Positions 28,124-62,259 of a stretch of 64,000 bases of DNA are shown here, one piece after another. The DNA comes from Escherichia phage PNJ1902. Position 1 is the stretch's first letter. Each line of letters starts with the position of its first letter. The notes beneath the pieces are model-generated. The model was not told the DNA's origin. It did not search any database and saw only the letters and a list, made by a program, of their open reading frames with translations. The translations under genes and the position numbers were made by a program. The DNA lies in the sequence record OK254197.1; one strand, 5' to 3'.

Positions 28124-29081
28124 ATTTCGCAGCTCTAGCCAAGATTCTATCAATGTCGCCTTGAGATAGCTTCTCGACTTCACGGAAGTAAAGTTCAAGT
28201 TCACCTAACATATCAAGATCAACAAGATTTAACTTAGCGTCTTTAGTAACTCGATGGTTAATCTTCTTATCTAATAAATCAGAGTCTTTGATCGACTTTA
28301 ATTGAACAACGTCACCGGTAACTTCATAGACTACACGATCATAATCACTAGGTTCCATCTCTTCACCAGCCCCGATTGTTTTACGAATCAGTTGTGGTAA
28401 ATCACCGAGTTCAATCCACTCTACTTTTAATGTATCGGTATCAACGATAAAGCAACCATTTGTACCTTTTGTGCGTTCTCTATGGAACGATGTAGTTAAT
28501 GGAGACCCGGGGTAGAGGAGTCTAGTAGATCCGATAGTCTGGCTATTAGTATAAGAATGTAAATCGCCAGCAATTACAGTATCATAACAGTTGTACTTAG
28601 TTAGATCAATTTCTGGTTTTACATGTGGAGGGATTTCACCACGAACATGCGTGAAACATAGTTTTGATTCAGATGGTTTCCACTTAGACTTATGGATCTC
28701 ATCATACGGAACAATATCAAATTCAGGGGAACGATATGGTTTGGTAACTACTTCCCACTTCCCACTCGTTACTTTATTAATAACTCCTGCATAATGATAT
28801 AGGCATGAAATGGTTTTAGTTAACATTTCATGATTTCCAGTAAAGATTTTGCCTGGATGGTCAAGTCTTGACATGAACTGTTCAAGCAGTTCTATTTCTT
28901 CTGACGACGGGTCGGCAACATCAAGTATATCACCACCAGCAATATGAAGATCACAGTTATGATTATGGAATATATCATTTAACCGTTCTCCTAGCATCAG
29001 GAAGCGACGCTTCTGCCATTCCTTTGGAACTTTATCTTGTCCTAGTTTGATATGATGATCAGCACTAAATAATATTCTCAT
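28104..29081 (-). CDS. SbcD/Mre11-like nuclease (D12-like)
   Basis: 325 aa; calcineurin-like phosphoesterase motifs DHH, GDILD, GNHE. Confidence 0.85.
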   Translation of the reverse strand: MRILFSADHHIKLGQDKVPKEWQKRRFLMLGERLNDIFHNHNCDLHIAGGDILDVADPSSEEIELLEQFMSRLDHPGKIFTGNHEMLTKTISCLYHYAGVINKVTSGKWEVVTKPYRSPEFDIVPYDEIHKSKWKPSESKLCFTHVRGEIPPHVKPEIDLTKYNCYDTVIAGDLHSYTNSQTIGSTRLLYPGSPLTTSFHRERTKGTNGCFIVDTDTLKVEWIELGDLPQLIRKTIGAGEEMEPSDYDRVVYEVTGDVVQLKSIKDSDLLDKKINHRVTKDAKLNLVDLDMLGELELYFREVEKLSQGDIDRILARAAKYVKDYN

Positions 29082-29082
29082 T

Positions 29083-29110
29083 GGTTAAAAAGAAAGGGGC
29101 CGAAGCCCCT
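29083..29110 (-). terminator. Stem-loop terminator/attenuator between D11-like and SbcD-like genes
   Basis: AGGGGC-CGAA-GCCCCT tetraloop hairpin followed on the minus strand by TTCTTTTT. Confidence 0.45.
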
Positions 29111-29117
29111 CTATTTA

Positions 29118-30306: not shown

Positions 30307-30375
30307 TAAAATTTTTATTTTTCTGCTTCGGACTTTCTTATCAATCCGAAACTTTCTCTCTCAAATTTATGTATA

Positions 30376-30406
30376 TATTATACATCATTTATGAGCTGTT
30401 GCCAAA
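30376..30406 (-). promoter_or_regulatory. Second tandem early promoter (minus strand)
   Basis: TTGGCA - 17 bp - TATAAT plus CATAAATTTGAGAGAG discriminator, nearly identical to the neighbouring promoter. Confidence 0.4.
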
Positions 30407-42237: not shown

Positions 42238-42268
42238 ATTTAAACTCCTCTCTCAAATTTATGAATCT

Positions 42269-42297
42269 ATTATACAGAAAAATTTTCCTGAAAGCAA
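42269..42297 (-). promoter_or_regulatory. Strong early promoter, near-identical to the classical T5 PN25 promoter
   Basis: Minus strand reads AAAATTTATTTGCTTTCAGGAAAATTTTTCTGTATAATAGATTCATAAATTTGAGAGAGGAG: A-rich UP region, TTGCTT, 17 bp, TATAAT. Confidence 0.8.
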
Positions 42298-42305
42298 ATA
42301 AATTT

Positions 42306-42548
42306 TTACGATTCCTTGAGCAAAGAAGCAAGTTCAGCATAGACTTTATCTAACTCAAAGCCGATGCGAAGAGACACGTTTGTTTTCCGTTGTTTAAGTA
42401 ACCACTCGGATATGTTAGGGATGCCAGCTAATCTATGTGGTACCACCCTACATAGCTTCTCCGAAGTGTCGTAAACAGGAACTTTACGCTCTTTTACTGG
42501 GAACTTCCTTGTTTCCCATTTTTTATTCTTCACTGTCATTTCTAGCAC
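42306..42548 (-). CDS. Hypothetical protein
   Basis: 80 aa ORF. Confidence 0.45.
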   Translation of the reverse strand: MLEMTVKNKKWETRKFPVKERKVPVYDTSEKLCRVVPHRLAGIPNISEWLLKQRKTNVSLRIGFELDKVYAELASLLKES

Positions 42549-45312
42549 CTAGCTCTGCCATTGCTTCATCATGCATATGTTTCTCCTCATCAGTCATAAA
42601 CTTATATGGGATTGGCATACACTCGATTTTACAATAGGTTCTGTACCAGTCTACAATATTCTCCGTGTTCATATCCTTACCAATACCCATCATACCAAGA
42701 TACATTCTCGCATATTTTGGGTTAGCACTCTGACCTGTTTTAAGGAAGAAATCTTTCTTCTTACCTTTCAGAGCTTCTATGAATGGTTTGATAGTGACAT
42801 TTGAACACTTCTTAATATCTTCCCAGAACATCTCGTGCATTTTATGGAAGAATGCCGCTCGATCATTCGGTTTATCTTTGATATATTGTTCAACGTGCTC
42901 AACTGTTACATCTTTAATAGACTCAAGATGATAGTAGCGAACAAGAAGTAGTTTAGCCTCATACGCATCTGCATGGCGTGGAGCACAATAATCAGGAGTT
43001 GAATACAAAATGGCTTTGATTCGCTCTTCCGTATACTCTTTTCCTGCACCTTCGATAGTTCCCCAGCTTTCACTGAAAATATCAATAGTTGCACCCTGAT
43101 CAAGCAAGTAATAACGTAAGGTACTAGTATAGTTTCTAGATTCCAGCTCTCTACGACGTGCGTATAATTGCTGTGCTAACTCCAGCCAACCTTCATCAAT
43201 GTTATATTGTTCAGAACCTGCGGAGAATCCACTCGTAGATTTATCAATAAAATAATAAATGTTCTGAGCGCCACGGTCGCGCCTGATTGCTTGGAAACGC
43301 ATGTTTGGCGCTTGGTTACTGGTTCTAGTAATAACGAATACGTTATCAAAGTAGTTGAAGTCAACGCCACTCGTTACGGATGGACTACATAATAAGCAAT
43401 CAATTTGTTGATCAATTAGCTCATTAGTTGTGTAATCCAGAATACGTCGAATATCTACATCAGACGTAGAATTTGAGTGGATTTCCTTAACTAGGGCACC
43501 TGTATTACGACGTAATGCCATACCCTTCTCATTCAGTTCATCCGGCCCACAGTCAGATACTAGGATAGATTTCTCACCCATCTCTAGAGAAGTCTGAAGT
43601 GCAACCCAAATACTGGATTCATCCGGGAACTCATAAGCATGAGCTTTTGACAGCATCTTACGGTGATGGTTGTAAAATGCAACCGGTTTATCAAAATCAA
43701 TTAGAGAACCGTAGGCTTCAATCGTCTCAGCACTAATATCACCATCAGATAAGATTACAGTTTTAGCTGTCATGAGGATGTCACGTAGAACTTGAATACA
43801 TTCGCGACGTTGTTTAACAACGGGGGCGAATAATAGATCATTCATTACAGCGTCACATTCATCAATAAAAATGGTGTCTATTTGACCAATAAAACTCTTG
43901 AACTTATGCAAAGAGTGAATAGTTGTGGACATACGGTCAATAGCGCCACGCTTAAAATTAAGCATATCTACAGACTTATCATATTGTCCTGCACTAAATT
44001 TCTTAGCATTTGAAGATACCAGCGCTCTAGTATTTGTAACTGCTAAAAAGTTGCCAGGAAGAACACCTGCGTCCAGCCATTTAGTTACTGCCGTAGTTTT
44101 ACCAGTACCAAGACTTGCCTTAACAAATGTTATATGGCCTTTTGGGGGCACAATGTTAATCTTCAGGTATGGAACTTCTGGTGGAGAATCCACTTCTAAT
44201 TTCTTGAGTGGAACACCTTTCAGATTTAATGGAATCTCACGTTTAGAATTATTAACAAACGCTTTGAGAGCCTGCTTGCGACCGTTATTAAAGTAATCTT
44301 GAATATTACGACTATTATCTTTAGTTGCAATATATTCAGATAAAGCGGGTTTAATCTCACGTTCTAGCCATGCGAAATCAACACCATCCTCTAATGCTCT
44401 ATGGTATAGTTTGGGGATAATACGCAAGTACACCCCATCCTCAGCTTCTTCCAATTCGCTGATGGTTTCTTCTACTTTATCAGACGCGATCTTTTTGCCT
44501 TTAATTTGGTCAAGTAAGGAATAGAATTCCTCTTTAAACTCTCCTCTAGTTGTTTCATAATCAACCAGATTATTGGGCAAATTTACCTTCGAACCTTTAA
44601 CATACACCAGACGTGGCTTACTCTCCGCTTTAAACGGATCTACAATACCATCGCTAAATAAAGGGTCGGCAAAATAGTGAAGCTGGACAGATGAATAATA
44701 AGCTAAGTCGGCAATGTCAAAACCGAATTTTTGCTTACTACTATCGTTGATGGATGTAAATAAGAACTTTAGCTGACCCTGAGTTACCTTGACGTTAGAT
44801 TCTAGCATTAAGTGCATTCGGATACCTGGTTTTAGGCCAGCCGAAGATGATGCATGAGCAATAAACCCTGCATCAAGAGGAAACATGTCCTCACTAATAC
44901 TATTCAACATCTTAATAATGTGGCGGGCCATGCCTACAAGATTAAACTTGTCGTACCCACCGGTATCTAGGATACCATCCACGTCCATAGCAATAATATT
45001 GCTGGGGTTGGATACATTAAAGTTACCTTTCTTACGCCGCACGTTATTTTTAGGTGCAAGACATCGACCTCGTACCGCAACGATATGAGGATCAGACGTT
45101 AAACGTCTCATAAGTGGTAACATTTCGGCAAGGCTTTGCGGGTCATGCTCTTCTATTACATCAAATTTGAAGGGCATAGAGGCTGGTTTACCTTCTGGAT
45201 GCTCTTTCGAGAATCGCTTGGCAAAGGTATAATCCTCCGCTTTGATTTCTCGCCAAATACCTGTTGCTAAATCACGAGAAAATCCGGCGTGACCTTGAAG
45301 AATAGAAAACAC
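42523..45312 (-). CDS. Large P-loop NTPase, putative replication-associated helicase / origin-binding-type protein; GTG start
   Basis: 929 aa; Walker A ASLGTGKTT and Walker B IFIDECD; RBS AGGAG 7 nt upstream of GTG. Confidence 0.75.
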   Translation of the reverse strand: MFSILQGHAGFSRDLATGIWREIKAEDYTFAKRFSKEHPEGKPASMPFKFDVIEEHDPQSLAEMLPLMRRLTSDPHIVAVRGRCLAPKNNVRRKKGNFNVSNPSNIIAMDVDGILDTGGYDKFNLVGMARHIIKMLNSISEDMFPLDAGFIAHASSSAGLKPGIRMHLMLESNVKVTQGQLKFLFTSINDSSKQKFGFDIADLAYYSSVQLHYFADPLFSDGIVDPFKAESKPRLVYVKGSKVNLPNNLVDYETTRGEFKEEFYSLLDQIKGKKIASDKVEETISELEEAEDGVYLRIIPKLYHRALEDGVDFAWLEREIKPALSEYIATKDNSRNIQDYFNNGRKQALKAFVNNSKREIPLNLKGVPLKKLEVDSPPEVPYLKINIVPPKGHITFVKASLGTGKTTAVTKWLDAGVLPGNFLAVTNTRALVSSNAKKFSAGQYDKSVDMLNFKRGAIDRMSTTIHSLHKFKSFIGQIDTIFIDECDAVMNDLLFAPVVKQRRECIQVLRDILMTAKTVILSDGDISAETIEAYGSLIDFDKPVAFYNHHRKMLSKAHAYEFPDESSIWVALQTSLEMGEKSILVSDCGPDELNEKGMALRRNTGALVKEIHSNSTSDVDIRRILDYTTNELIDQQIDCLLCSPSVTSGVDFNYFDNVFVITRTSNQAPNMRFQAIRRDRGAQNIYYFIDKSTSGFSAGSEQYNIDEGWLELAQQLYARRRELESRNYTSTLRYYLLDQGATIDIFSESWGTIEGAGKEYTEERIKAILYSTPDYCAPRHADAYEAKLLLVRYYHLESIKDVTVEHVEQYIKDKPNDRAAFFHKMHEMFWEDIKKCSNVTIKPFIEALKGKKKDFFLKTGQSANPKYARMYLGMMGIGKDMNTENIVDWYRTYCKIECMPIPYKFMTDEEKHMHDEAMAELGARNDSEE

Positions 45313-45810
45313 AACAATACTCCTGTGTTGGTTAATCGAAAATCTTTTCTTTAGGACTATTCAGAAAGAATAGAACAACTATTACTACTGTTTACGTAAA
45401 CATCAATTATCATCAAGCAATATGAATAAGTTATCATATCTCAGTGCTGTGCTCTCTTCGCTCATATACAGAATAGAACCTAGGTCATTGGCCGCTAAGC
45501 CGATTCTATTTGTCCTCACTATCCTATTGGTAGGTGACTACTGTACGTGCCGCCATTCGCTGCTCTTTTCGTTCGCACCCCCATATAAAGCTCTGCCTAT
45601 ATAACGAGCTAAATATGCACGGTTTGGATTTACCTTTCCGAATTCAGGGTACACAGATCACTTAATTGAAGATTAACTAATGCAATATAAACACTAGTAA
45701 TAGTTAAAACAACCCTTAATGGGGCAGCCTAACTGTTCCGTATCGCGGATTGTAAACAAGAAAAATTAGCAAAATCAATTTTTACTAATGTCTCTCAATT
45801 CAATATAAAT

Positions 45811-45839
45811 ATTATATCAAGATTTTGGGCATCCGGCAA
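45811..45839 (-). promoter_or_regulatory. Early promoter firing into an ORF-free leader of about 480 nt
   Basis: TTGCCG - 17 bp - TATAAT followed by ATTTATATTGAATTGAGAGA. Confidence 0.5.
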
Positions 45840-45933
45840 GTAAAATTTTCCGGATGGTGCTATCAGTGTCTTTGAGCATAGAGAAAACCGAGCCAAAATG
45901 ACTCGGTAATCAGAGTTCAGCTAATAAAAATCA

Positions 45934-46323
45934 TTAGTCATTTAATCCCGGAACATAGATCCCAACACGGCTTAACTGTTCTTTAGCTTCTGCGAGAATA
46001 TCTGGAGTGTACTCCCAAATATCATCTTCCACCTGTAAAAGATGGGGCGAACAACCGTCACCAGGCACACGACATATGGCCAAACCACGTGGATGGAATA
46101 TAGAGAAGTTTAGGGCAACAATTAAACCCATAGCGGACAATTCATTCCAGTCCATCTCCCACTCCCTGGCATATCCAGATAGGAAAACGCCAATGCATGG
46201 ATCATCTATTTGCTGCTCAGGAAAAGTGAAGGAGGCTTGTCTTACCCCCAACCAACGTTGTAGCAGCTTCTCCGCACGTTTCACCAAACTAGGGTCAATC
46301 TGACGCCAATATACTTGTTCCAT
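45934..46323 (-). CDS. Hypothetical protein (tandem paralog 2)
   Basis: 129 aa; shares PCIG..., EL.xMGL(I/V)(V/F)ALN(F/Y) and C-terminal (I/Y)(Y/M)(V/I)PGL motifs with upstream neighbour. Confidence 0.55.
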   Translation of the reverse strand: MEQVYWRQIDPSLVKRAEKLLQRWLGVRQASFTFPEQQIDDPCIGVFLSGYAREWEMDWNELSAMGLIVALNFSIFHPRGLAICRVPGDGCSPHLLQVEDDIWEYTPDILAEAKEQLSRVGIYVPGLND

Positions 46324-46332
46324 TCTGCCTCC

Positions 46333-46761
46333 TTAAGCAGTTAAACCTGGGATCATATACCCGAAACGGCGAAGTTTCTGAATCCCCTCATTTACTTCTT
46401 CCGGTGAGTAAGACCAACCATAACGTTCATTAACCTGAAAACCAGGAGATTCACTAGTTTTATAGTTAACAACGAGGCGATGCTTAACAGGCATAAACAG
46501 CTTATAATTTAACGCAAAAACTAAGCCCATTTCGTCTAACTCTTTCCAGCCGACAATCTCTTCAAGACCCTCCTCTACCTGAACAATTAAACCAATACAG
46601 GGAGCCTCATCAATATCATCTTTAAAAGCAAAGGAGATTTCGTTATTCTCACACCATATTTTCAAGGAATTAATAGCCTCATTATACAGGCTAGAGGGGA
46701 GAGTACGCCAAAAGTTAACTAAAATTGGGTTAACTTCTTTAGAGAAGACATTATTGAACAT
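46333..46761 (-). CDS. Hypothetical protein (tandem paralog 1)
   Basis: 142 aa; paralogous motifs as above. Confidence 0.55.
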   Translation of the reverse strand: MFNNVFSKEVNPILVNFWRTLPSSLYNEAINSLKIWCENNEISFAFKDDIDEAPCIGLIVQVEEGLEEIVGWKELDEMGLVFALNYKLFMPVKHRLVVNYKTSESPGFQVNERYGWSYSPEEVNEGIQKLRRFGYMIPGLTA

Positions 46762-48939: not shown

Positions 48940-48967
48940 AGCTTTCTCCTCTCAAATTTATAAATCT

Positions 48968-48996
48968 ATTATATATAAATTTTTGGCTGAAAGCAA
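48968..48996 (-). promoter_or_regulatory. Strong early promoter (PN25-like) driving the Sir2/HAD operon
   Basis: TTATTTGCTTTCAGCCAAAAATTTATATAATAGATTTATAAATTTGAGAGGAG on minus strand: TTGCTT - 17 - TATAAT. Confidence 0.7.
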
Positions 48997-60873: not shown

Positions 60874-60902
60874 TTGCTTCCGGCTCCAAAATTCTGTATA
60901 AT
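60874..60902 (+). promoter_or_regulatory. Early promoter
   Basis: TTGCTT - 17 bp - TATAAT then ATATTCATAAATTTGAGA. Confidence 0.65.
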
Positions 60903-60942
60903 ATATTCATAAATTTGAGAAAACAATAAAAGGAAAACAAAT

Positions 60943-61817: not shown

Positions 61818-62200
61818 TAATTTAAAAGCTAGTAAATCGGTAGACGAAAGCCTAAGCATCTTACCTCGCAGCAGCGGTTGAAATACGAGGTTAAATAAGA
61901 CCGCTGACCATACTATAAAGTATAATCTATTGGAGATTATGTTTATTACACCAGCCTTTTAAGCTGACACGTAAGAACAAAGCGTCGTTGATATTACCGA
62001 CACAACTTCAAAGATCAACATTTAAGTATGAAAGCTGAAAAGTTTAAAGAACTCAAACTTCTAAACTTCTAAAGCTAAAAGATGCAAAGTATTCGTTGAT
62101 GATTCAAACCCTAGATCAAAGGTACATGGCTCATAAGATATGGCCTGTGGCGCCTCTAGGCTGTTTATCGGTTTACTAGTTTCACAATTTAAAAATGTAT

Positions 62201-62229
62201 TTGCTAATCTACTAAATTATATGTATAAT
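62201..62229 (+). promoter_or_regulatory. Early promoter
   Basis: TTGCTA - 17 bp - TATAAT. Confidence 0.65.
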
Positions 62230-62259
62230 ATATTTTTAAATTGATGAAACGAGGCTATT

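Follow-up and report, generated by a model that had tools for sequence, protein, structure and literature searches.

In lambdoid phages (ori and the N-terminal domain of O) and in ColE2 plasmids (ori and Rep), a recognition element and the specificity domain of the adjacent initiator vary together as exchangeable alleles. Folded nucleic acid can also be what is recognized, as with ssiA and ssiB of RSF1010, ssDNA hairpins recognized by RepB'. In T4, gp43 and gp32 repress autogenously. At the RNase III stems of rRNA operons and of the T7 early R sites, a long, near-continuous helix flanks a folded RNA within a longer primary transcript. Comparative discovery has also yielded large structured RNAs of phages and bacteria (GOLLD, ROOL, HEARO, OLE and raiA) that are phage-associated, span several hundred nt and comprise multiple domains, some of them peripheral and optional. 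Two plasmid systems come closest to the locus described here. In ColE1, the promoter for the multi-stem RNA II lies ~500 nt upstream and the fold is conserved while the sequence diverges; no plasmid initiator is needed, and the antisense RNA I exerts control. In pSYSA of Synechocystis 6803, a strongly transcribed upstream locus and CyRepA1 are both needed for autonomous replication, which the upstream RNA "likely primes" in the spacer ahead of the rep gene (PMC9978351).

The locus studied here lies in a T5-like phage, within a 64,000-nt stretch of Escherichia phage PNJ1902 (OK254197.1; hereafter the window), upstream of the gene for D2. Like pSYSA, with its ssr7036 mRNA/asRNA1 locus and CyRepA1 (Slr7037), it combines a Rep-like protein of ~950 aa, with a helicase and a putative primase part, with a locus upstream on the same strand whose strong transcription is, in T5-like phages, predicted from promoters. 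Unlike ssr7036, a small ORF under an abundant antisense RNA, the T5 element has no conserved ORF and no antisense promoter (no promoter-like site on the opposite strand at 45200-46000). It is also three times longer than the pSYSA locus and far more structured, and it occurs in a lytic phage, where copy-number control is not evident. Its resemblance to ColE1 RNA II extends from promoter distance and multi-stem architecture to a fold that outlasts sequence divergence, and host RNase processing is expected; in contrast to ColE1, an initiator gene follows, the antisense promoter is missing and Rfam contains no RNAI match. As in the lambdoid and ColE2 modules, paired exchangeable alleles lie between conserved flanks, but the elements of those modules are short dsDNA repeats or sites, whereas in T5 a 300-nt region is conserved as RNA-type secondary structure. 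The T5 RNA resembles GOLLD and its counterparts in size, domain make-up and mode of discovery; it differs from them in being tied to one protein gene, in not lying near tRNAs and in having no Rfam match.

The gap upstream of D2

Coordinates below are window positions, and all features lie on the minus strand. The 621 nt between coding sequences at 45313-45933 are the largest non-coding stretch in the window, a spurious opposite-strand ORF being ignored; under a greedy ORF call, intergenic gaps there have a median of 27 nt and a 90th percentile of 169 nt. An earlier note on this DNA had called attention to the unusual size of the gap, to a consensus-like early promoter feeding it and to a GTG-initiated 929-aa ATPase gene downstream, and all three observations hold. 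Window positions 45.3-45.8 kb correspond to ~59.0-59.5 kb in T5.

The promoter is an early sigma-70 site, TTGCCG-17-TATAAT (45811-45839), that matches the consensus at 10 of 12 positions and has a TG-extended -10 element. It is accompanied by the T5 early-promoter downstream motif TTGAGAGA (45791-45798); the combination TATAAT-N12-TTGAGAGA occurs 10 times in the window, including at 30357, 42249 and 48948, against 1.7 occurrences expected by chance. In each of the three T5 GenBank records the leader site carries a promoter annotation, under the name T5P32, and no other feature. The upstream operon is closed by an intrinsic terminator (ACCGAGTC-ATT-TTGGCTCGGT followed by a T run; 45887-45907), which is annotated in T5 records, is conserved in alignment A1 and shows where a new transcription unit begins. 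The predicted transcription start is at ~45804, and leader conservation starts at the transcription start. In some relatives a different promoter has been swapped in, yet conservation picks up again at GAGAGAC. A strong predicted promoter precedes the element in every lineage but that of the Aeromonas phages, whose flank is too short to show one. Proteus phages have two promoters matching 12/12 consensus positions, of which the first precedes the element and the second separates it from D2, and in the lineage designated L044 a promoter likewise lies between element and D2.

No terminator between element and D2 was found in T5-like, Klebsiella, Providencia or Vibrio phages, and the element is therefore literally the 5' UTR of D2 in those phages. 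In Aeromonas phages, a terminator-like hairpin followed by a U run can be read by eye before D2; the terminator scan did not flag it.

From the predicted start to the GTG at 45312, ~492 nt contain no conserved ORF. On the transcribed strand no ORF exceeds 38 aa (the three longest are 38, 38 and 26 aa), in agreement with the earlier description of ~480 nt without a transcribed-strand ORF of at least 60 aa, and the opposite strand holds one 60-aa ORF that we judge spurious. Some genome annotations place hypothetical proteins of 33-50 aa in the leader, as might be expected if the stretch were mere spacer, a decayed gene or a set of unannotated small ORFs. These ORFs, however, are not preceded by Shine-Dalgarno (SD) sequences and are disrupted in near relatives that share the leader type, which rules out the small-ORF explanation; a conserved small ORF, which the earlier note had named as an alternative account of the region, was not found in the leader across lineages. 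Moreover, the leader is the best-conserved DNA of its neighborhood, at 92-97% identity against 63-85% in the flanking genes: between T5 and a Salmonella phage with the same leader type (type A, see below), identity is 92-97% in the leader, 63-77% in the upstream genes and 82-95% in D2. Because it is more conserved than the flanking genes, and because no ORF is conserved between lineages, the leader is not the decayed-gene remnant that had been considered. Substitutions that keep base pairing likewise contradict both spacer and decayed gene, and we regard a lack of function as scarcely credible.

D2 itself (42523-45312) is a UL9/CyRepA1-like helicase of 929 aa identified by Pfam, PDB and NCBIfam searches; its biochemistry has been described (PMC3632103). 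It matches the Pfam family Herpes_ori_bp and the herpesvirus origin-binding proteins in the PDB. Residues ~392-724 align to NCBIfam CyRepA1 (NF042913) with E=1.3e-35 and 123 bits; since this falls below the curated cut-off of 200 bits, D2 is a CyRepA1 relative and not an equivalog. Searches of the N-terminal half against the PDB (with single sequence and profile), Pfam and NCBIfam returned no significant match. Within this half, D110 and D112 are invariant, and S155, S157, G159, G163, R165, H167 and D202 nearly so. By our reading, these residues would include DxD and SxxGxxxGxRxH motifs like those of archaeo-eukaryotic primases, which are characterized by DxD, sGxGxH and a third acidic motif.

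The leader RNA belongs to no Rfam family. At permissive E-value limits, Rfam 15 gave a single match in the window region, to nuoG (E=3.3), whose 15.5 bits fall well short of the gathering score of 33; the other five lineages had no match at E<=5, and the whole window had none at the gathering score. ARAGORN found no tRNA or tmRNA genes in the window. The known small RNA or tRNA that had been envisaged for this gap therefore did not materialize, ARAGORN and permissive Rfam scans giving nothing credible in six lineages. A resemblance to RNase P, suggested by ACAGAAC..GGCU and GAGGAAGU motifs, was dropped because Rfam gave no match. When IMG/VR and metagenomes were scanned for a pattern joining the P2 motif and the UUAGCG hairpin (both described below), the known A, B and Klebsiella types came up and no new lineages. 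In our literature search this RNA was undescribed and no T5 origin was mapped here; a 1976 origin-mapping paper lay outside the search's reach.

Fold and parts of the leader RNA

T5-like leaders carry one of two core types, A and B. An alignment of 29 sequences, 27 of them distinct, gave a consensus with 92 predicted pairs, 22 of which show compensatory changes. Standard pairs occupy 99.8% of paired cells compared with 93.5% in shuffles (0/500 as high), and when pairing partners were slid by 1-3 columns, the number of double-change pairs was 2-5 instead of 22 and the covariation score 0.02-0.06 instead of 0.242; consensus structure and pair counts are drawn from one and the same alignment, in which many A-versus-B compensations may be single events and the MAFFT alignment of A against B is uncertain in the core. 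Within types, compensatory pairs number 12 in A and 6 in B, and broken cells 6/2601 and 10/1626, respectively. The fold is also strand specific: 408 cells are G.U (16% of paired cells) and 5 are A.C, and alifold energies for the transcribed strand and its complement are -125.5 versus -91.0 in type A and -134.6 versus -104.0 in type B. Folding z-scores for the whole leader, which range from -0.7 to -4.8, are modest and not decisive alone. Sequence and structure are thus both conserved among relatives, and the promoter-fed gap very probably encodes a conserved, strand-specific, highly structured RNA of ~490 nt. Where the earlier note had offered a structured regulatory leader as one option, comparative evidence for the structure is strong, and the regulatory role is compatible with our data as one of two readings we favor.

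We also considered that the element acts only as DNA, either as a protein-binding origin or as an ssDNA-hairpin initiation signal read by the putative D2 primase domain, with transcription incidental. Hairpins in the non-template strand would give the same covariation and the same tolerance of G.T; D2 is an initiator homolog, and origins usually adjoin initiator genes; and the putative primase-like motifs of D2 would fit such a signal. Nevertheless, the G.U content and pairing across 300 nt favor RNA, the conserved stretch starts where transcription does, even in phages whose promoter has been replaced, and a dedicated consensus promoter is retained where D2 has its own. Nor does the leader look like an iteron-type dsDNA origin: it contains no iterons (no set of at least three direct repeats, only 10-nt repeats that are themselves helix strands), no AT-rich unwinding element or pronounced AT trough, and no GC-skew switch or inflection. 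A DNA-only element is, in our view, highly improbable.

The RNA begins with P1, a 5'-terminal hairpin (GAGAGA-C-AUUAGUAAAA / UUUUGCUAAU-U-UUUCUU; 45758-45796) corresponding to helix 1 of the consensus, with a G.U to A-U change. The Klebsiella, L044 and My1 lineages retain P1 although its sequence differs, and inspection of the sequence shows it in Providencia as well. The core hairpin P2 follows (GAU-ac-GG-aa-CAGU-uag-GCUG-CC-cc-AUU, with the conserved motif ACGGAACAGUUAGGCUGCCCCAU; 45718-45744) and covaries across genera: its closing pair is variously G.U, A-U, G-C or C-G, and its second pair changes from G-C to A-U. In five lineages, a constant 218-222 nt separate the P2 motif from the UUAGCG hairpin.

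A long-range, interrupted closing helix of ~50 bp encloses the ~300-nt core. Its 5' strand (45650-45707) is supported by inverted repeats I1 and I2 and by compensatory changes in helices 3, 4 and 12; its 3' strand (45375-45448) is supported by duplex energy, inverted repeats and covariation. RNAduplex energies are -37 to -47 kcal/mol in types A, B, L044 and Providencia, although the sequence differs in each, and an 18-nt arm at 94% complementarity is prolonged by extensions. The helix frames the core with at least ~20 bp of nearly unbroken dsRNA, which is the layout of an RNase III processing stem; it differs from the known stems in being AU-rich and interrupted, and cleavage is inferred.

The inner part of the core (45449-45649) is the most variable in A/B comparison. 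It contains the hallmark hairpin (45473-45509), which consists of a lower stem, an asymmetric internal loop on the 3' side, an upper stem of 3 bp and a hexaloop of invariant sequence UUAGCG (45493-45498); helices 8 and 9, which form it, contribute six compensatory pairs. The same architecture recurs with unrelated stem sequences in nine lineages, including Proteus and Aeromonas phages; across lineages, MAFFT put the 3' strands out of register. Downstream of the closing helix lies a 3' hairpin (CUAUUC-uuucu-GAAUAG, helix 13; 45357-45373) that is invariant in T5-like phages and has counterparts, read from the sequences, in Klebsiella (CUAUC/GAUAG), Providencia (CCUG/CAGG) and L044 (CUUUCC/GGAAAG) phages. 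In 51 phages the leader also holds an optional 96-nt insert. Since the insert occurs once per genome and always inside this leader, a mobile repeat is ruled out.

The D2 SD sequence (AGGAG, 45320-45324) and GTG start codon (45310-45312) close the leader. These elements bear on the chief rival of the reading we prefer below, a possibility that we place on the unlikely side, namely that the folded 5' UTR is a cis-acting regulatory leader that sets D2 mRNA synthesis or stability. D2 might bind its own leader and repress autogenously, or the leader might work as in plasmid rep-gene leaders; RNase III acting at the closing helix might set mRNA half-life. In support, the element always lies on the same strand directly upstream of D2, it is a 5' UTR without a terminator in the phages listed above, and the start codon of T5-like phages sits in a small local hairpin (helix 14). 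On the other hand, SD accessibility is not consistently controlled: its predicted unpaired probability ranges from 0.01 to 0.80 between lineages, pairing partners differ, and an SD-sequestration model is inconsistent from one lineage to the next. Riboswitch features are likewise absent, with no Rfam aptamer in the window or five other lineages, no terminator before D2 in T5-like phages and no consistent SD sequestration. Promoters between element and D2 in Proteus phages (12/12) and L044, and the Aeromonas terminator-like hairpin read by eye, also argue against a leader acting in cis, as do the ~490-nt length and optional 96-nt inserts, which put the element far above known translational operators in size.

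Promoter-fed equivalents precede D2 in Klebsiella, Pectobacterium, Providencia, Proteus and Aeromonas phages, and Vibrio phages probably carry one as well. In most Demerecviridae lineages examined, the element is immediately upstream of D2 on the same strand. Exceptions are Vibrio phage D254 (locus L014), in which a 239-aa ORF directly precedes D2 with no gap, and four further loci (L053-L056) with ORFs of ~100 aa in the stretch before D2. Vibrio leaders do not have the UUAGCG loop sequence. Because an nhmmer profile built from type B, Klebsiella, L044 and My1 leaders matched nothing in the Providencia, Proteus, Aeromonas and Vibrio loci, homology among distant leaders rests only on motifs and architecture. 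The element would add a family of ~450-1100 nt to the few large structured phage RNAs.

Core alleles and the N-terminal half of D2

At full length, the type A cassette occupies transcript positions 111-415. Its core is 86-92% identical across genera within type A and 20-23% identical to that of type B, which is unalignable to A in sequence but equal in length and built on shared helices. Both leader types are present in both flanking backgrounds.

Cassette type co-segregates with a hypervariable segment of D2, residues 361-420 (44053-44232), before and around Walker A. This segment carries 18 fixed A/B differences and diverges by 27-44% between types versus 1-5% within a type. D2 sites in complete linkage with leader type number 22 at residues 1-150 and 29 at 351-450, with 5 between and none past 450. 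Three extra records follow the same rule, and database-wide, 273 records have an A-type D2 segment and 274 a full type-A leader. Core allele type and the variable N-terminal segments of D2 are thus in complete linkage, in a sample that includes many near-identical genomes. In the Vibrio clade the pattern recurs: 98% identity over the first 101 nt of the leader gives way to a core that cannot be aligned, while D2 identity is 60-87% over residues 1-420 and 93-100% over residues 421-750. Part of the linkage could reflect an old haplotype block, not co-adaptation. The family-wide distribution of the element, its two-allele cassette and its co-variation with D2 had not been foreseen in the earlier note.

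D2 binding its own mRNA would also yield co-variation with the N-terminal half, as a cis-regulatory leader would have it; allelic diversification is, however, more typical of specificity pairs than of operators. The linkage also bears on whether the RNA acts in trans, as an independent non-coding RNA excised from the early transcript and directed at a host or phage target (in takeover, as an anti-defense decoy or as a scaffold), its adjacency to D2 being mere synteny. An RNA of this kind, comparable to other large phage RNAs, would explain why the element has its own promoter even where D2 has one, and the possible terminator read by eye in Aeromonas phages would suit it. The closing helix would permit clean excision; the peripheral domains are modular and optional, as the 96-nt insert illustrates; the invariant hexaloop suggests a conserved partner; and fast-diverging cores would suit an arms race. 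Yet the near-perfect linkage, seen again in the Vibrio clade, suggests that the partner is D2, most genera examined retain the position relative to D2, and no candidate target was found. We consider a trans-acting role unlikely.

A possible role in replication initiation and the meaning of the element

Our tentative preference, which we would put somewhat short of even, is that the transcript is an origin-associated or pre-primer RNA of a D2 replication-initiation module, a reading drawn from sequence comparison. Transcription from the early promoter would run across the region beside the initiator gene and yield a folded RNA that serves as pre-primer or activates the origin. In D2, the variable N-terminal half, comprising the putative primase-like motifs and linker, would recognize its cognate RNA core or, alternatively, the displaced DNA strand of identical sequence, and D2 would start DNA synthesis there. 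The long closing helix would probably be cut by host RNase III, which would part the folded RNA from the D2 mRNA. The mRNA would then retain the 3' hairpin close to its newly made 5' end. Such a scheme would be akin to that of ColE1 RNA II and closer still to the cyanobacterial pSYSA replicon.

The origin-associated element proposed in the earlier note is compatible with these results and is favored jointly with a regulatory leader; linkage to the N-terminal half of D2 counts for it. In T5-like phages the element is the D2 5' UTR without a terminator, and there a cis-regulatory leader fits equally well. Strand bias in T5 recombitrons has been interpreted as replication that is dominantly unidirectional and starts at one end of the genome (PMC10055335), which is at odds with a dominant origin that is central and bidirectional.

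Several consequences follow for work on T5, a classic model phage in which the leader offers a testable candidate for the cis-acting partner of D2. Small hypothetical ORF calls in this leader should cease, and those who engineer T5 by removing "non-coding" DNA should treat the region as probably essential. The natural A/B allele system, represented in roughly 440 sequenced genomes, can be used for RNA-protein specificity swaps. We further speculate, as a doubtful but specific extension of the pre-primer reading, that the element stands for a new class among the large structured phage RNAs, serving as the specificity partner of a primase-helicase initiator, with the fold of the transcript or displaced strand defining the origin. 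If so, the leader would be the missing T5 origin, and RNA/protein allele pairs would give co-infecting related phages separate replication specificities.

The leader upstream of D2

The stretch between a strong early promoter and the D2 gene of this phage carries a conserved, strand-specific fold that is promoter-fed and tied to D2. The window belongs to a T5-like phage (Tequintavirus), and several records of T5-like phages match the region at 97-98% identity (phage T5, AY543070 58858-59657, at 97.3%). Downstream of the gap lies a 929-aa gene with a GTG start (42523-45312, minus strand). It corresponds to T5 D2, for which some annotations give "replication origin binding protein"; T5 D2 is the bipolar helicase that is the subject of Wong et al. 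2013. The upstream neighbor is a DUF7415 gene (45934-46323, minus), which together with 46333-46761 (minus) forms a tandem of paralogs, one DUF7415 domain each (PHROG 2502), directly 5' of the promoter. A terminator at 45887-45907 (minus) ends the upstream operon. The promoter itself (TTGCCG-17-TATAAT, 45839-45811, minus) matches 10 of 12 consensus positions and has a TG extension. From the inferred transcript start to the D2 start codon there are about 492 nt, in which the longest transcribed-strand ORFs reach 38, 38, and 26 aa. Measured from CDS to CDS, the gap spans 621 nt, more than any other in the window (median, 27 nt). An earlier note had proposed a promoter-fed, ORF-free leader of unusual size before this ATPase gene, and these measurements bear it out. 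In T5 records the gap bears no annotation beyond a promoter, in some cases joined by a terminator.

The leader promoter bears the downstream signature of T5 early promoters, TATAAT-N12-TTGAGAGA, which has 10 matches in the window versus 1.7 expected by chance. Further copies lie at 30357-30382, 42249-42274, and 48948-48973 (minus) and at 60897-60922 (plus); the one at 42249 corresponds to promoter P-N25 of the T5 annotation. At the other copies GAGAG runs directly into a Shine-Dalgarno sequence (SD) and gene, whereas the D2 leader is long. Other long ORF-poor gaps (386-408 nt) occur at 2182-2589, 28205-28590 and 28795-29117 (parted by a short ORF alone), and 61860-62259; Rfam at gathering score gave no matches in them.

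The leader does not encode a known small RNA or tRNA: ARAGORN detected no tRNA in the window, and Rfam returned no credible match at E<=10 for the region, at E<=5 for five other lineages, or at gathering score for the whole window. Rfam and full-text literature searches yielded no description of the element, which falls in no known RNA family. Some annotators call small ORFs in the leader; these are without an SD and are disrupted even in near relatives of the same sequence type. A 60-aa plus-strand ORF inside the folded core (45422-45604), which would make simple gene callers divide the gap, is unconserved and best taken as spurious.

Conservation and strand-specific folding

BLAST places the leader in 441 phage records. 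Alignments resolve three zones: about 110 nt of near-invariant 5' sequence, a core of about 300 nt in two forms, and a conserved 3' part of about 75 nt. Type A cores occur in the window, T5, and many Salmonella Epseptimaviruses, and type B in IME178, fp01, and others; the two are equal in length and only 20-23% identical. The leader is better conserved than its neighbors. Between T5 and a Salmonella type A phage, it is 92-97% identical, compared with 63-77% for the upstream genes and 82-95% for D2. The comparative alignment suggested by the earlier note reveals conservation above that of the flanking genes, as well as a fold with compensatory changes.

RNAalifold, run on 29 leaders of both types, gave 92 consensus pairs, 22 with compensatory changes as counted on the same alignment that yielded the structure; many of the A-versus-B changes may be single events, and the MAFFT alignment of A with B is uncertain within the core. 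Within types, where alignment is unambiguous, compensatory pairs number 12 in A and 6 in B, with 6 of 2601 and 10 of 1626 cells broken, respectively. Standard pairs fill 99.8% of 2484 cells versus 93.5% +/- 0.3 after shuffling (0 of 500 shuffles as high). With 3' partners slid by 1-3 columns, double-change pairs fell from 22 to 2-5 and the covariation score from 0.242 to 0.02-0.06. That a leader with such a record has no function is hardly credible.

The supported minus-strand helices comprise the 5' hairpin P1 (45758-45796), an interrupted closing helix of about 50 bp (45650-45707 with 45375-45448), an inner long-range helix (45651-45661 with 45444-45452; four compensatory pairs), a hallmark hairpin (45473-45509; six compensatory pairs), and a 3' hairpin (45357-45373). 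The outer 10-12 bp of the closing helix are A-U in the window, G.U in T5, and G-C in type B. Energies for this helix range from -37 to -47 kcal/mol across A, B, the uncultured relative L044, and Providencia phages, each with its own sequence. Because paired cells hold 408 G.U versus 5 A.C, and Alifold energies are far better than for the complement (A, -125.5 versus -91.0; B, -134.6 versus -104.0), we assign the fold to the transcribed strand. The leader has no iterons (its sole direct repeats are 10-mers forming helix strands), no GC-skew switch or AT trough, and no opposite-strand promoter. A purely DNA-level signal seems very unlikely.

The 5' end varies among relatives. Four loci (L019, L025, L029, and L038) carry an extra gene 5' of the leader, which brings a different promoter (TTGCAAGGGAGTATTATTTTATAGTATAAT); in L019, L025, and L038, identity restarts at GAGAGAC, essentially the transcript start. 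In L029 the inserted stretch (100-235) also brings a second P1 copy ahead of the normal promoter. The inserted gene with its promoter and the P1 duplicate suggest that promoter and P1 act as a recombination cassette. In about 51 phages, some of type A and others of type B, a 96-nt extra stem-loop with an 8-nt TTTTTCTT duplication follows P1 directly, once per genome and always at the same site (near window 45758/45759). Examples are L008:446-541 (Salmonella phage ende) and loci L009, L026, L031, and L048. Vibrio phage L050 has an analogous insert of about 93 nt behind its conserved 5' module.

Equivalents in other genera

A consensus-like promoter and long ORF-free stretch also precede D2 in Klebsiella Sugarlandvirus, L044, Pectobacterium phage My1, Providencia Priunavirus, and Proteus Novosibvirus. 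In Aeromonas Shenzhenvirus the ORF-free stretch exceeds 1300 nt, with no promoter within the short flank covered. Lengths across genera run from about 480 to over 1300 nt. Pairing in P1 and in P2 (window 45718-45744) is kept under different sequences, the P2 closing pair being G.U, A-U, G-C, or C-G. The hallmark hairpin is rebuilt in nine lineages from unrelated stem sequences. Above its lower stem come an internal loop, asymmetric on the 3' side, then an upper stem of 3 bp (GGC/GCC, GAC/GUC, GCC/GGU, or AGC/GUU) and an invariant UUAGCG hexaloop. By arithmetic from positions, the P2 motif and the UUAGCG loop are 218-222 nt apart in five lineages.

In Proteus phages, two perfect 12/12 sigma-70 promoters bracket an element of about 700 nt, one before it and one between it and D2 (L091:605-633 and L091:1335-1364 in phage PM135; L092 likewise), which gives D2 a promoter of its own in this genus. 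L044 has a promoter-like site between element and D2. In Aeromonas phages, inspection by eye finds a branched hairpin and U run before D2 that a simple scan did not flag. The stretch in Aeromonas phage TS3 (L015:1-1308; no ORF >=60 aa on either strand) has a perfect CCCGAAAAGC-UUAGCG-GUUUUUCGGG hairpin about 1100 nt 5' of D2 and, about 85 nt 5' of D2, a branched hairpin that resembles a terminator and has a U run; two or more RNAs may be encoded there. An analogous region in Vibrio phages, likewise fed by a promoter, measures 650-1080 nt and shows no demonstrable sequence homology to the enterobacterial forms. Exceptions are Vibrio phage D254, in which a 239-aa ORF lies immediately 5' of D2 without a gap, and L053-L056, in which ORFs of about 100 aa lie within the stretch. 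Pattern scans of IMG/VR and metagenomes recovered known types only.

Linkage with D2 and a possible role in replication

D2 matches Pfam Herpes_ori_bp and solved herpesvirus origin-binding proteins, and hits the NCBIfam CyRepA1 plasmid replication model at E=1.3e-35, under the curated cut-off. In its N-terminal half, D110 and D112 are invariant and S155, S157, G159, G163, R165, H167, and D202 nearly so. These residues can be read as putative primase-like motifs; profile and PDB searches returned no match in support of that reading. A hypervariable two-allele segment (residues 361-420, window 44053-44232) lies just before and around Walker A (e.g., LEVDSPPEVPYLKINIVPPKGH versus LETNSLETDNFLKLNTVPPEGY).

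Across 28 loci, this segment diverges by 27-44% between leader types and 1-5% within them, has 18 fixed differences, and shows complete linkage to the type of leader cassette. Completely linked nucleotide sites number 22 in residues 1-150, 5 in 151-350, 29 in 351-450, and none beyond 450; mean r2 drops to 0.02 past residue 550. Both kinds of upstream flank occur with each leader type. Three additional records fit the rule, and database-wide 273 records have the A-type segment (>=80% identity) versus 274 with a full-length type A leader. A Vibrio clade repeats the pattern independently: L049 and L051 share 98% of their first 101 leader nt, their cores are unalignable, and identity between their D2 proteins is 60-87% in residues 1-420 but 93-100% in residues 421-750. 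Same-core phages L049, L050, and L059 are 97-100% identical over most of D2. The A/B linkage and the Vibrio pattern identify RNA core plus D2 N-terminal half as the exchangeable unit, with a conserved 5' RNA module on one side and the conserved helicase on the other. Alongside this linkage, a trans-acting RNA unconnected with D2 appears improbable. In Klebsiella phage vB_Kpn_3 (MZ079855), D2 is annotated as several short CDSs, one a "portal vertex protein," and has internal stops when translated from the annotated start; a frameshift introduced in assembly or annotation is the likeliest cause.

We tentatively propose, from sequence comparison, that the leader may be the RNA part of a D2 initiation module. 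The transcript would serve as a pre-primer or origin-activating RNA, and the N-terminal half of the cognate D2 would recognize its core. The closing helix is, judged by its predicted pairing, long enough for an RNase III substrate; cleavage there would free the folded RNA, and the 3' hairpin would then sit close to the 5' end of the D2 mRNA. Among experimental precedents, pSYSA comes closest: its replication needs both the rep gene, for the primase-helicase CyRepA1, and a strongly transcribed locus 5' of that gene, whose RNA "likely primes" the process (PMC9978351). ColE1 RNA II is the classical analog. Against an initiation module stand the absence of DNA-level origin hallmarks and of an antisense regulator, and T5 recombitron strand bias, which points to replication that starts at one end of the genome and proceeds mainly in one direction (PMC10055335). 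The main rival, a cis-regulatory leader possibly bound by D2, suits the 5' UTR position, but the internal promoters, element size, and allelic diversification fit it less well and SD accessibility is inconsistent; we regard it as possible but rather unlikely.

As a kind, a transcribed structured element 5' of a replication initiator has precedents. Returning to the initiation module, there is an appreciable if minor chance that leader and D2 represent something more, namely a fold-defined origin or a specificity pair of RNA and initiator, and with it the missing T5 origin.
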